A stretch of 64,000 nucleotides of DNA. It comes from Escherichia coli. Its GTDB lineage: Bacteria; Pseudomonadota; Gammaproteobacteria; Enterobacterales; Enterobacteriaceae. The position numbers are program-made. The stretch is taken from assembly GCF_003991155.1 (NCBI RefSeq), contig NZ_CP031293.1. One strand, given 5' to 3'. Of the stretch, positions 42,001 to 45,000 are shown in pieces. Position 1 is the stretch's first letter, and every line of letters begins with the position of its first letter.

Positions 42001-45000
42001 AAACGGATACAGCCAGACTGTCGGTGCACTGCAGACAGAAACGGGAGCGCACATTCAGCTTGATAGCGGTAGTGTACTAACGGTCAGCGGCACGCAGCGT
42101 CAGCCGGGGGATGATAATGGTGGCATCATTGAAAACAATGTGCTGACCGGAGACGGTACGCTGGCTGTCACGGGCAGCAATCTGACGGTACATGGCACCA
42201 ATATCGGGTTTACCGGTAATGCCAGCCTTACCCAGGGGGCGCTGGTTGAAATGAACGGCGCACAGGGGCTGGGAAGCCAGGGCTCCATCAGCTTTGAAAG
42301 CCTTAATGATCGCCTGGCGATTGATATCGCCGACGGTAGCGGAGTCAGCAGTAACCTGAGTAAATCGCTTTCCGGAAAAGGTTCAGTGGGCATACTGAAC
42401 ACCACTGATCTGACACTTTCCGGAGATAACCGTAATTTCAGCGGTGAATTCCGTGTGCAGAAAGATGCTGCTCTGCGGGCTTCAGATGAAAAACACCTGG
42501 GCACCGGGCTGATTGACAGTGATGGTGTCACCTGGCTTACCGCCAGTGGAAACTGGTTACTGAAGAATGATATTACTGGCTCCGGCGCTCTGGTGAAACA
42601 GGGGGCGGGTAATCTGATCATTAATCATGAGCTGACTTATACCGGTGATACCACGGTTGAGAATGGCGTTCTGATTGTCGGTGATGATTCAGTCACCCGT
42701 GCCGCTGGTGCGACGTTGTCAGGCTCCAAAAACATTCATGTTCTTAATGGCGGCACACTGAGTGGGCTGGGGACCGTTTCGGGTCAGGTTAATAACCAGG
42801 GAACACTGGCATCACTAAATGCTCTCTCAGGTTATGAAACGGCAGAGGCGGGCAATTTTACCGTTGGCTCACTGACCAATACTGGCGTCATTCGTCTGGC
42901 CGGTGGTAAGACAGGAAATACCCTGACCGTAAATGGCGATTACACTGGTGGCGGTACGTTAATTATCAATACCGTGCTGGGGGATGATACTTCTGCCACT
43001 GACAAACTGATTGTCACGGGTAACACCTCCGGTGATACCGGCGTGGTGGTGAATAATGTCCGGGGCCAGGGGGCTCAGACCGCTGACGGCATTGAGATTG
43101 TGCATGTCGGTGGGCAATCTGACGGTAACTTCAGACTGCAGAACCGTGCGGTGGCAGGGGCATGGGAATATTTCCTGCATAAAGGTAATGCGGGTGGTAC
43201 TGACGGTAACTGGTATCTGCGTTCTGAATTGCCGCCAGAACCACAACCGCAGCCGCAGCCACAACCGCAGCCACAGCCACACCCACACCCCACGCCGGAT
43301 AAACCTGTACAGAAGGTCTATCGTCCGGAAGCGGGCTCTTATATTGCGAACATAGCGGCAGCCAACACGCTGTTCAACATCAGAATGCACGATCGTGAGG
43401 GGGAAACTTACTATACCGATGTGTTTACTGGTGAGAAGAAAGCAACAAGTATGTGGATGCGTCATATCGGCGGTCATAATCGCTGGAAGGACAGCAGTTC
43501 ACAGCTGAATACGCAAAGTAACCGTTATGTTGTGCAACTGGGTGGCAGCATTGCGCAATGGACTGACGGTCAGGACCGTCTGCAACTGGGGATTATGGCC
43601 GGTTATGGAAATGAGAAGAGTTCCACGACATCCTCGCTTTCGGGATATAAATCTAAAGGTGCGATCAATGGATACAGCACCGGTTTATACGGAACGTGGC
43701 AGCAGAATGACGGTAATGACAACGGGGCTTATGTCGATACCTGGATCCAGTACGGATGGTTTAATAATACCGTTAATGGTGAAAAACTGGCTGCGGAGTC
43801 CTGGAAATCCCGTGGATTTACCGGTTCAGTGGAAGCGGGTTATACCTTTAAAGCCGGCGAATTTACCGGTAGCCAGGGTAGTCACTATGACTGGTATATT
43901 CAGCCGCAGTCCCAGATCACGTGGATGAATGTAAGAGCCAGTGAGCATACGGAGAAGAATGGCACGAAAGTTCAGCTCAGCGGAGACGGTAATATCCAGA
44001 GTCGTCTGGGCGTCAGAACTTACCTGAAAGGTAAGAGTGCGTCTGATGATAATAAGGCGCATCAGTTCGAGCCATTTGTGGAAGTTAACTGGATCCATAA
44101 TACACGGAGCTGGGGTGTCAAAATGGATAATACGGCACTCAGTCAGGACGGAGCTACAAATATTGCTGAAGTCAAAACGGGTGTTCAGGGTAAATTGTCA
44201 GATAACCTGAATGTCTGGGGCAATGTTGGTGTTCAGGCTGGCGATAAAGGGTACAGTGATGCCCAGGCAATGCTGGGTATTAAATATATATTCTAATCAC
44301 ACAGTGGCAGGAGGGGACCTCCTGCCACCTCAGGGTTGTCATAATGAGTTCTGTAATGAAATTTTCTGTTGTTAATGCAGTAGTGCTGCTGTTGCTGATT
44401 GTACTTACTGGTGTTTTTTATATGAAAAAGTCAAAAGAAATTGCAGTTGTTAATATCGATGCTATTTATAATCAGTCTGCCGCCGGAGACATGGCCAGAA
44501 AACATCTGAATGAGGTTAAGAGTATTCTTGAAAAAGGATATGAGGATGCGCAAAAAGTATTCGCAGATAACGCGAATAAAGAGGCGCTGCTTCTTGATGC
44601 CAGACAAAAACTGGAACGACAATATGTTATTGAGGAAAATAGCGCAAAAATGGTGTTATCCCGTGCGATAGATAATGCTATAGGCACATGGAGAAAAGAC
44701 AATCCTAAAAATATTGCCGTATTGTCTTCAGGTGTTGTGCTTGCGCATAACGAGTCAGCTGATATCACCAAAGAAGTCATGACTCTGGTTGAAAAAGAAA
44801 ATCTGGTTTTTAATAAATTACCCAAAGTGGAAGTGCACAATAAGAATGAAGAGAAACCAGAACAAAGTAAGTAATCACTAGATTCTGACGATTTCCAGAA
44901 GGGAGATTCAGCAGGCCAGCATCTGTAATCATTCAGATTTGCTGGCTTGCTGCTAAATATGGTTGCTGAGAAAAATAGCAGGCCAGTAATTTATTCAGAT

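Follow-up and report, generated by a model that had tools for sequence, protein, structure and literature searches.

A conserved GC-rich hairpin after the upaE stop codon of Escherichia coli: a candidate protective 3' end of an autotransporter mRNA

Introduction

The phase-variable UpaE locus is among the studied virulence determinants of uropathogenic Escherichia coli. It has been described as an ipuR-upaE two-gene operon, in a report that mentions neither the gene downstream of upaE nor the hairpin that precedes that gene (PMC6083910). In every relative examined, both the hairpin and a gene for a Skp-fold protein lie downstream of upaE, so that studies of UpaE expression may overlook a third cistron as well as a site of post-transcriptional control. 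What, then, is the hairpin for? The original prediction, made from the DNA alone, saw in it an intra-operon stability or processing element or a modulator of translational coupling, rather than an intrinsic terminator. Here, we weigh these and other readings against folding, comparative and published evidence.

The upaE locus and the Skp-like gene

The window, a 64,000-nt stretch of E. coli DNA, is 100% identical to strain SMS-3-5 at this locus, which is the argW island with the gene order ipuB-ipuA-ipuR-upaE-skp-like. The features considered are as follows.

36377..44296, + strand: upaE, an AIDA-type autotransporter adhesin of 2,639 aa (ORF list, Pfam, NCBIfam)
44297..44303, + strand: spacer TCACACA, 7 nt, between the upaE stop codon and the stem
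44304-44328, + strand: hairpin, with 5' arm 44304-44314, loop GGA 44315-44317 and 3' arm 44318-44328 (sequence, folding and covariation)
44329..44343, + strand: spacer CTCAGGGTTGTCATA, 15 nt, U-poor, its sole content a weak Shine-Dalgarno-like AGGG at 44332-44335
44344..44874, + strand: Skp/OmpH-like gene, 176 aa (ORF list, sub-threshold Pfam OmpH, AlphaFold model)
44909..45004, + strand: structured U-poor region past the Skp-like stop codon (folding z = -5.0)

UpaE carries the Pfam domains ESPR, PATR and AC_1 and the NCBIfam autotransporter beta-barrel, has ...GIKYIF as its last residues, with the stop codon TAA at 44294-44296, and is labelled 'phase-variable autotransporter adhesin UpaE' in genomes that are 100% identical. 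The protein encoded downstream has a hydrophobic N-terminal helix (residues 4-27) and matches Pfam OmpH below threshold only; its AlphaFold model (pLDDT 92) matches Skp structures with probability 1.00. A profile search of the genome contigs with the Skp-like alignment gave no match. Some annotations adopt an alternative in-frame ATG for this gene at 44356, 27 nt past the stem. The giant autotransporter and the Skp-like protein, a putative membrane-anchored chaperone, form a mobile cassette that is found on chromosomal islands and on P1-like phage-plasmids. The transcript probably has its distal end in the region 44909..45004, where hairpins form at 44909-44952 and at 44984-45004; the terminator scan called no canonical terminator there.

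The hairpin and its fold

The plus strand at 44304-44328 reads GTGGCAGGAGG-GGA-CCTCCTGCCAC, as first described, and forms an 11-bp stem in which every base is paired (8 G-C pairs) and which is closed by a 3-nt loop. The stem starts at the eighth base past the upaE stop codon, and the Skp-like ATG at 44344 is the sixteenth base past the stem, with 15 nt between them; the distances of 8 and 16 bp given originally agree with this count. The folding energy, a check proposed at the outset, is -20.9 kcal/mol (z = -5.3; none of 200 shuffles as stable). The fold makes up 93% of the ensemble and is kept in both the MFE and the centroid structure of a 251-nt context. Perfect hairpins of at least 11 bp are rare by chance: the window holds five distinct ones, and when nested calls are counted the class numbers 8 against 0.14 expected from Markov shuffles.

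A structure conserved beyond its sequence

The stem hardly differs among E. coli, Escherichia sp., S. diarizonae and phage-plasmid cassettes, and the loop occurs in at least seven forms (GGA, AGA, GGC, ATC, AGC, ACA and TGT). Loop and both spacers are free to vary, and the 22 stem bases almost never change. All 252 E. coli genomes with the locus match across the junction, and 250 of them keep the 31-nt hairpin query at a coverage of at least 94%. Because close relatives are also 83-100% identical in the flanking beta-barrel coding DNA, their invariant stems carry little weight alone. Strain C11, otherwise 90-100% identical to the window in this segment, has a double change from G-C to U-A that keeps the pair. 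Two diverged autotransporter-Skp cassettes, L011 and L013, have perfect stems of 11-12 bp in the same position, amid surrounding sequence that is 33-60% identical to the window; L013 shows three compensated stem pairs, and in L011 the 11-bp stem is a different one and carries a GAAA loop. The geometry is constant, with a stem of 11-12 bp and -21 to -23 kcal/mol placed 6-7 nt past the autotransporter stop codon in every lineage examined.

A formal covariation count found 98.2% of cells paired and four of the 11 pairs changed on both sides in a compensatory manner; no value as high arose in 500 shuffles, and slid controls were 39-66% paired. This count covers 10 same-length variants, since MAFFT could not put the diverged hairpins in register, and the hairpins of L011 and Yersinia ruckeri were compared by eye and by folding. 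Homologues on Y. ruckeri plasmids share the geometry and continue into a run of six or seven U residues (U6-7), which makes them canonical terminators. Their stem contains two G.U pairs that are workable on the sense strand only and, together with the U tract, these identify the Y. ruckeri element as a sense-strand RNA terminator. The stems of the E. coli lineage are all perfect Watson-Crick helices with no G.U pair and therefore give no strand information, that is, they do not distinguish an RNA element from a palindrome acting at the DNA level. Taken as a comparison of sequences, these patterns indicate that the hairpin is selected as a structure and not as a sequence.

Compensatory changes in a palindrome can also arise by template switching during replication, with no selection at all, and the products are perfect Watson-Crick palindromes that pass through no G.U intermediate. 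On that basis the hairpin could be a functionless relic, what remains of an ancestral autotransporter terminator after erosion of its U tract, kept by short divergence times and self-correcting template switching. The Y. ruckeri state does look ancestral, and the high identity of the flanking beta-barrel DNA among close relatives fits such a history. We nevertheless regard it as improbable: the stems of L011 and L013 are still perfect although the intergenic sequence next to them has diverged to the extent given above, the stem bases are near-fixed beside a variable loop and variable spacers, and the junction is matched in every E. coli genome that has the locus, with the hairpin retained in nearly all of them.

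The same perfect 11+3+11 symmetry with its free central spacer might instead belong to a DNA palindrome, either an operator for an HTH regulator of the cassette (IpuR, GerE-type or XRE-type) or a recombination or cruciform site. HTH genes lie beside every cassette, and the E. coli-lineage stems lack strand-revealing G.U pairs. This reading is highly improbable in our view. Symmetry over all 11 bp far exceeds what an operator needs, the arms are wholly different in sequence among lineages at a fixed position relative to the stop codon, and the 3-4 bp between the arms cannot accommodate the core of a tyrosine-recombinase site. The G.U pairs and U tract of Y. ruckeri make sense only as RNA, promoter-like sites nearby occur at chance level (5 found, 5.0 expected), and there is no second copy anywhere. 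A pattern search allowing up to three mismatches found no other copy in the window; a covariance model run over the window and 17 loci recovered orthologous sites only, as did a 31-nt BLAST search (E up to 10) of 5,426 E. coli genomes, which hit about 250 of them. The median genome has its match in one place only, and each of the loci checked was an upaE-type autotransporter-Skp locus.

Such single-copy occurrence at upaE-type loci led us to reject a REP/BIME or other dispersed palindromic repeat. REP/BIME elements are likewise extragenic palindromes between convergent or co-directional genes and are able to stabilise upstream mRNA, but the upaE hairpin is unrepeated and has no Rfam match; to our knowledge, it does not resemble the REP consensus either. 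Rfam covariance models, run on 43800-45600 with E up to 10, returned a tRNA-Arg and chance-level matches only, and no family. An antisense promoter at 44426-44398 that would use the hairpin as its terminator is not supported either: promoter-like matches equal the shuffle expectation, and the coding sequence around the site is poorly conserved.

Association with the autotransporter gene

Four Skp-like genes that lack an upstream autotransporter, two of them on near-duplicate contigs, are preceded by stems of only 5-8 bp. Conversely, other E. coli AIDA-type autotransporter genes (ehaA, an ECSE_1600-family gene and an MSI001 gene) end in hairpins of -20 to -24 kcal/mol, most of which lack a clean U tract, and none of these genes is followed by a Skp-like gene. 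From one lineage to another, the hairpin lies at different distances from the Skp-like start codon. Judged from these arrangements, the hairpin tracks the stop codon of the autotransporter and not the start of the Skp-like gene.

This bears on the idea that the hairpin serves the Skp-like gene, as a 5'-proximal stabiliser of its mRNA, left when RNase E cleaves upaE in its AU-rich end, or by tuning ribosome access or re-initiation at the Skp-like start. A mechanism of the first kind is documented for papBA (PMC5927463). There too, uropathogenic E. coli has an intercistronic hairpin with AU-rich sequence upstream, in an operon for a phase-variable adhesin. Motifs of the RN|WUU type (AU|AUU and GU|AUU), read from the alignment, lie 10-25 nt 5' of the stem in all relatives, and the stem ends 3 nt upstream of the weak Shine-Dalgarno sequence. 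The motifs are not independent evidence, because the codons for GIKY(T/I)F fix them. They are candidate RNase E sites, and unlike the papBA element the upaE hairpin goes with the upstream stop codon: it is missing at Skp-like genes without an autotransporter and present at autotransporters without a Skp-like gene. Moreover, at least 10 unpaired nucleotides 5' of a stem, as the candidate cuts would leave, protect poorly. Predicted accessibility of the ribosome binding site is 0.49 with the hairpin intact and 0.39-0.49 with it disrupted or deleted. In the 251-nt fold the Skp-like Shine-Dalgarno sequence is predicted to pair at long range with 44201-44210 in the upaE coding sequence; this pairing is not conserved in relatives and was rejected. 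A role on behalf of the downstream gene is accordingly unlikely, and the suggested modulator of translational coupling finds no support in the near-constant accessibility, the variable distance to the start codon or the Skp-like genes that lack the hairpin.

A bolder reading would make the hairpin a purpose-built ratio-setting device of the mobile cassette, with formation of the stem governed by the ribosome that terminates 6-7 nt upstream or by a factor that the cassette encodes. If that were true, synthesis of a dedicated chaperone would be tied to translation of the 2,639-aa adhesin, a level of control beyond mRNA decay; we consider it very unlikely.

Several further roles at the level of translation were considered and rejected. 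A small ORF translated from the AGGAGG in the 5' arm has a CUG as its sole nearby candidate start, which is not conserved. Unmasking of this AGGAGG by the terminating ribosome fails on footprint geometry: the stem begins at about +14 from the P site and should remain closed. There is no slippery heptamer for a readthrough or frameshift stimulator, and extension past the C-terminal Phe of UpaE would destroy the beta-signal. Finally, a CsrA-binding hairpin is at odds with the loop, which is GGA here and takes the other forms listed above, or GAAA, elsewhere.

Relation to intrinsic terminators

With its G+C-rich 11-bp stem, 3-4-nt loop and site just past a stop codon, the hairpin resembles a canonical intrinsic terminator, the class to which its Y. 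ruckeri homologue belongs. What it lacks is the tail. The sequence 3' of the stem is CUCAGGGU, with two U residues in the first 8 nt, in line with the absence of a T-run noted originally. The tail score is 2.0, compared with 4.5-5.7 for canonical terminators of the same window and for the Y. ruckeri homologue. Every version from E. coli, Salmonella, L011 and L013 scores about 2.0, and none of them has a U tract or an upstream A tract. The terminator scan of the window did not call the hairpin. Since no U tract follows the stem here or in any E. coli or Salmonella relative, the hairpin is not a canonical intrinsic terminator, and to that extent the prediction on this point holds.

It could still act as a working attenuator, at which, even with no U tract, a substantial fraction of RNA polymerase pauses and releases, keeping transcription of the Skp-like gene below that of upaE by a fixed ratio. 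The stem has the length and energy, and the loop the size, that are typical of terminators, and a canonical terminator occupies the same position in Y. ruckeri. In addition, the space that separates the hairpin from the Skp-like start is too small to fit a promoter, and expression of that gene therefore depends on what passes the hairpin. Against these points stand the U-poor tail with its low score, the missing A tract and the silence of a simple terminator scan, and E. coli RNA polymerase requires a U tract for efficient intrinsic termination. Attenuation is thus unlikely.

A protective 3' end for the upaE message

The reading we favour, to which we give about an even chance of being right, is that the hairpin would define a 3' end, block exonucleases and so stabilise upaE mRNA, permitting read-through. 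It would be an RNA element of the 3' end of the upaE cistron that folds once RNA polymerase has passed, the 6-7-nt spacer being just long enough for the stem to stay folded with a ribosome on the stop codon. In the absence of a U tract the polymerase would mostly read through into the Skp-like gene, and we propose that the two genes share one transcript. An endonuclease would then cut the AU-rich, weakly translated distal part, and PNPase and RNase II would digest 3'-to-5' until halted by the G+C-rich stem. The upaE message that remains would be stable and its 3' end defined, and upaE and Skp-like mRNA amounts would be uncoupled. The low GC of the Skp-like gene (0.32-0.41) and its weak Shine-Dalgarno sequence fit a less protected distal segment.

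Elements of this kind are known. In E. coli, mRNA 3' ends commonly lie at low-U terminator-like stem-loops that are protective against PNPase and RNase II (Dar & Sorek 2018, NAR, PMC6061677). The upaE hairpin resembles them in its terminator-like stem and loop, similar energy, position just past a coding region and lack of both a uridine-rich tail and an A tract (the upstream spacer is TCACACA), the proposed action being the same exonuclease block. The published ends follow Rho-dependent termination and are then trailed by a mild enrichment of C over G, whereas G exceeds C downstream of the upaE hairpin: no rut-like C-over-G bias occurs, and GC skew is +0.05 to +0.38 throughout 44300-44900. 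This skew, together with a translated gene beginning 15-27 nt on, makes endonuclease entry likelier than Rho here.

Conserved intercistronic 3' structures that stabilise upstream cistrons form a second related group, the differential operon decay structures such as those of malE-malF and menBCE (Dar & Sorek 2018, PLoS Genet, PMC5927463). They too are stable structures immediately downstream of the first cistron in a co-directional pair, are conserved among related species and precede a distal gene that is less well translated. At upaE the stem lies 7 nt past the stop codon, with the next gene 15-27 nt past the stem, and is conserved in E. coli, Escherichia sp., S. diarizonae, L011, L013 and Y. 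ruckeri with compensatory changes. The malE-malF structure consists of REP repeats, whereas the upaE hairpin is single-copy and locus-specific.

The proposal of an intra-operon stability or processing element is thus the part of the original prediction that best fits the comparative evidence, namely the compensatory changes, the perfect diverged stems, the link to the autotransporter stop codon and the existence of a published class. From this evidence we infer the function and the transcript ends, as well as co-transcription, read-through, exonuclease block and differential stability at the hairpin; a literature search for 3'-end maps of upaE-carrying strains yielded nothing usable. A plasmid clone ending exactly at the upaE stop codon still gave surface-displayed UpaE, so that the hairpin is dispensable for production, a result that does not address the half-life of the native mRNA. 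On the favoured reading the upaE hairpin is an ordinary kind of element that belongs to a known class and is not conceptually new. If it does set mRNA stability, it adds one more operon reshaped by decay, in a horizontally mobile adhesin cassette, which would be useful for annotation and for construct design.

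Position and stability of the hairpin

The junction between upaE, which encodes an AIDA-type autotransporter adhesin, and the Skp-like gene downstream comprises the following features.

36377-44296, plus strand: upaE open reading frame, its stop 7 nt 5' of the hairpin
44304-44328, plus strand: hairpin, GTGGCAGGAGG-GGA-CCTCCTGCCAC
44344 (start), plus strand: Skp-like open reading frame, 15 nt 3' of the hairpin

The hairpin has a perfect 11-bp stem, a 3-nt loop and a computed folding energy of -20.9 kcal/mol. This fold makes up 93% of the ensemble (z = -5.3), was equalled in stability by none of 200 shuffled sequences, and remains the dominant local structure within a 251-nt context. 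U occupies two of the first eight positions 3' of the stem, and a terminator scan of the window did not call the site. The stem-loop, its spacing and the missing T-run had thus been accurately described, and the calculated energy agrees with the stability originally predicted. A second in-frame ATG of the Skp-like gene, at 44356, is the start in some RefSeq annotations, and its equivalent is the only one of the two present in diverged relatives.

Perfect stems of at least 11 bp gave eight nested calls in the window, against 0.14 expected by chance; the eight calls correspond to five distinct hairpins. The other four lie at 12722-12747, 47453-47484 (just 3' of mlaA), 49190-49218 and 56696-56722; at least three of them carry A or T runs inside or right after the stem, as in bidirectional intrinsic terminators. 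The upaE hairpin sequence occurs once in the window and has a median of one match per genome (maximum four) among 5,426 E. coli genomes, which rules out a dispersed repeat. All matches examined belong to autotransporter-Skp loci of the upaE type. With a covariance model of the variants, neither the window nor 17 further loci yielded another copy, and an Rfam search of the hairpin region returned no family.

Strain SMS-3-5 and many other genomes are 100% identical to the window in this region, and their gene order is dsdC, ipuB, ipuA, an HTH regulator (ipuR), UpaE (annotated 'phase-variable autotransporter adhesin UpaE'), an OmpH-family or hypothetical protein, tRNA-Arg(CCU), yfdC and mlaA; the locus is present in about 252 of 5,426 complete E. 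coli genomes. ipuR and upaE have been described as a two-gene operon under the invertible ipuS promoter (PMC6083910), and the same study, which defined UpaE, mentions neither the downstream gene nor the hairpin. Its expression clone stops exactly at the upaE stop codon and UpaE still reaches the K-12 surface (PMC6083910), so that the hairpin and the downstream gene are dispensable for display in that setting.

Compensatory change in the stem

Related autotransporter-Skp cassettes were compared from S. enterica subsp. diarizonae (L002), Escherichia sp. E2593 and P1-like phage-plasmids (L004, L010, L024-L029), E. coli islands of strains SY038 (L008/L088) and C11 (L009), and metagenomes. All retain the stem and the spacing between the two genes; at least seven loop sequences occur (GGA, AGA, GGC, ATC, AGC, ACA, TGT) and both spacers vary. 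The C11 stem, GGCAGTAGG...CCTACTGCC, carries a G-C to U-A double change within a recombinant segment otherwise 90-100% identical to the window. Two more distant loci, L011 (GTGTGGTAGGG-GAAA-CCCTACCACAC) and L013 (GTTGCCGGAGA-ATC-TCTCCGGCAAC), encode Skp-like proteins 42-50% identical to that of the window. Their stems differ from the window's and are again perfect (11-12 bp, -21 to -22.5 kcal/mol), 6 nt past the stop codon, in intergenic sequence of only 33-60% identity. Among ten same-length variants, 98.2% of paired positions in the alignment remain paired and four of the 11 pairs have both sides changed; none of 500 shuffles scored as high, and slid controls gave 39-66%. Uncompensated stem changes were found only twice, in S. 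diarizonae and in one metagenome contig.

By these sequence comparisons the hairpin is a real structure under selection. Template switching in palindromes can give compensated changes without selection, as would suit a neutral relic, but such a relic is hard to square with stems that are perfect in diverged backgrounds.

Association with the autotransporter cistron

Two plasmids of Yersinia ruckeri carry a Skp-like gene (about 31% identical) behind an autotransporter that ends in GIKYRF, and six nucleotides past the autotransporter stop lies GAGGGGGCCCG-ATGG-CGGGTCCCUUC, then U6-7. Its stem includes two G.U pairs, which pair in the sense RNA only; this element is a canonical intrinsic terminator. 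Skp-like genes without a preceding autotransporter (L012, L081-L083) have upstream stems of only 5-8 bp. Conversely, three AIDA-type autotransporter genes of E. coli without a Skp-like neighbour (ehaA, an ECSE_1600-family gene and one gene of strain MSI001) have 3'-end hairpins of -20 to -24 kcal/mol, that of the ECSE_1600-family gene being 11 bp long, 8 nt past the stop and devoid of a U tract. Taken together, these three sets of genes assign the hairpin to the autotransporter cistron, at its 3' end.

This association makes it less likely that the hairpin serves the downstream gene, whether by stabilising its 5' end or by modulating its translation, as does the negligible change predicted for accessibility of the ribosome-binding site. 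A function as DNA, in an operator or recombination site, is unlikely, since the arm sequences turn over completely and yet the hairpin keeps its place relative to the stop codon; moreover, the Y. ruckeri form is intelligible only as RNA.

A probable protective function

The score for U-richness 3' of the stem is about 2.0 in every version from E. coli, Salmonella, L011 and L013, versus 4.5-5.7 in the Y. ruckeri version and the real terminators of the window. The hairpin therefore lacks a defining feature of intrinsic terminators, in line with the original prediction. It could be a true attenuator that works without a U tract, but this would run contrary to known behaviour of E. coli RNA polymerase.

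In E. coli, U-poor stem-loops that otherwise look like terminators are known as sites where mRNA 3' ends accumulate and as barriers to PNPase and RNase II (PMC6061677); the upaE hairpin fits this class. It differs from the Rho-linked variant, for which C>G is expected downstream, in that its downstream skew is G>C, which favours endonuclease entry. It likewise fits a second published class, the conserved intercistronic 3' structures by which upstream cistrons are stabilised during differential operon decay (PMC5927463). Most likely, it is a protective hairpin of an ordinary kind at the 3' end of the upaE message. Transcription would read through it, co-transcribing upaE and the Skp-like gene; an endonuclease could then enter the Skp-like segment, which is AU-rich (GC 0.32-0.41) and weakly translated, and exonucleases would trim back to the stem, which would act as a decay barrier. 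The stability or processing role first proposed fits both published classes; the alternative of a translational coupling modulator is disfavoured by the association data and ribosome-binding-site accessibility.

A second structured, U-poor region (z = -5.0) lies 3' of the Skp-like stop at 44909-45004, with hairpins predicted by folding at 44909-44952 and 44984-45004, and is likely the distal transcript end. It contains the motif GCAGGCCAG...ATTCAGATT twice and separates the island genes from tRNA-Arg(CCU) (45312-45386, minus strand).

The Skp-like gene and its cassette

More noteworthy than the hairpin is a by-product of the analysis: upaE-type autotransporters are accompanied by a conserved Skp-fold gene that had gone unremarked. 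Its protein matches Pfam OmpH only below threshold; the AlphaFold model (pLDDT 92.4, N-terminal helix at residues 4-27) has Foldseek matches at probability 1.00 to Skp, T9SS SkpA and a Caulobacter OmpH-like protein, and on this modelled fold the name 'Skp-like' is justified. A hydrophobic N-terminal helix replaces the cleavable signal, lipoboxes are present in distant relatives, and the gene (44344-44874) lies directly 3' of a giant AIDA-type autotransporter in every relative examined from E. coli, S. diarizonae and Y. ruckeri. The protein may be a dedicated membrane-tethered chaperone. GC content at 44350-44900 is 0.32-0.41 versus 0.43-0.52 in the adjacent 3' end of upaE, with G>C skew throughout. 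In the related metagenome contigs L013 (2806-2826) and L014, GGTGTTTTTT in the membrane-anchor coding part (window 44410-44419) is one base shorter (GG then T7), which causes a 5' frameshift, the gene being called from an internal ATG; assembly error, pseudogene formation or homopolymer slippage could account for it.

The autotransporter-Skp-HTH cassette, with its hairpin, also occurs on P1-like phage-plasmids (L004, L005, L007, L010, L024-L029; e.g. L010 1-10029), adjoining DUF968, late-promoter-activator and terminase genes, and its presence on both these and chromosomal islands indicates mobility between them. SY038 (L008 1-18181, L088) has two tandem cassettes, each preceded by PapI/PapB-like regulators in the place of the window's ipuS/ipuR switch; the same cassette is wired there to a different phase-variation system. 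The C11 locus (L009), aligned to window 44207-44596, is a mosaic: as far as about 44207 its autotransporter shares only 40-77% identity with upaE, and from there on identity is 80-100% (mostly at least 87%) across the hairpin and the 5' portion of the Skp-like gene. The recombination breakpoint falls within the final ~90 bp of the sequence encoding the barrel, and the C11 Skp-like gene is truncated by an IS66 insertion.
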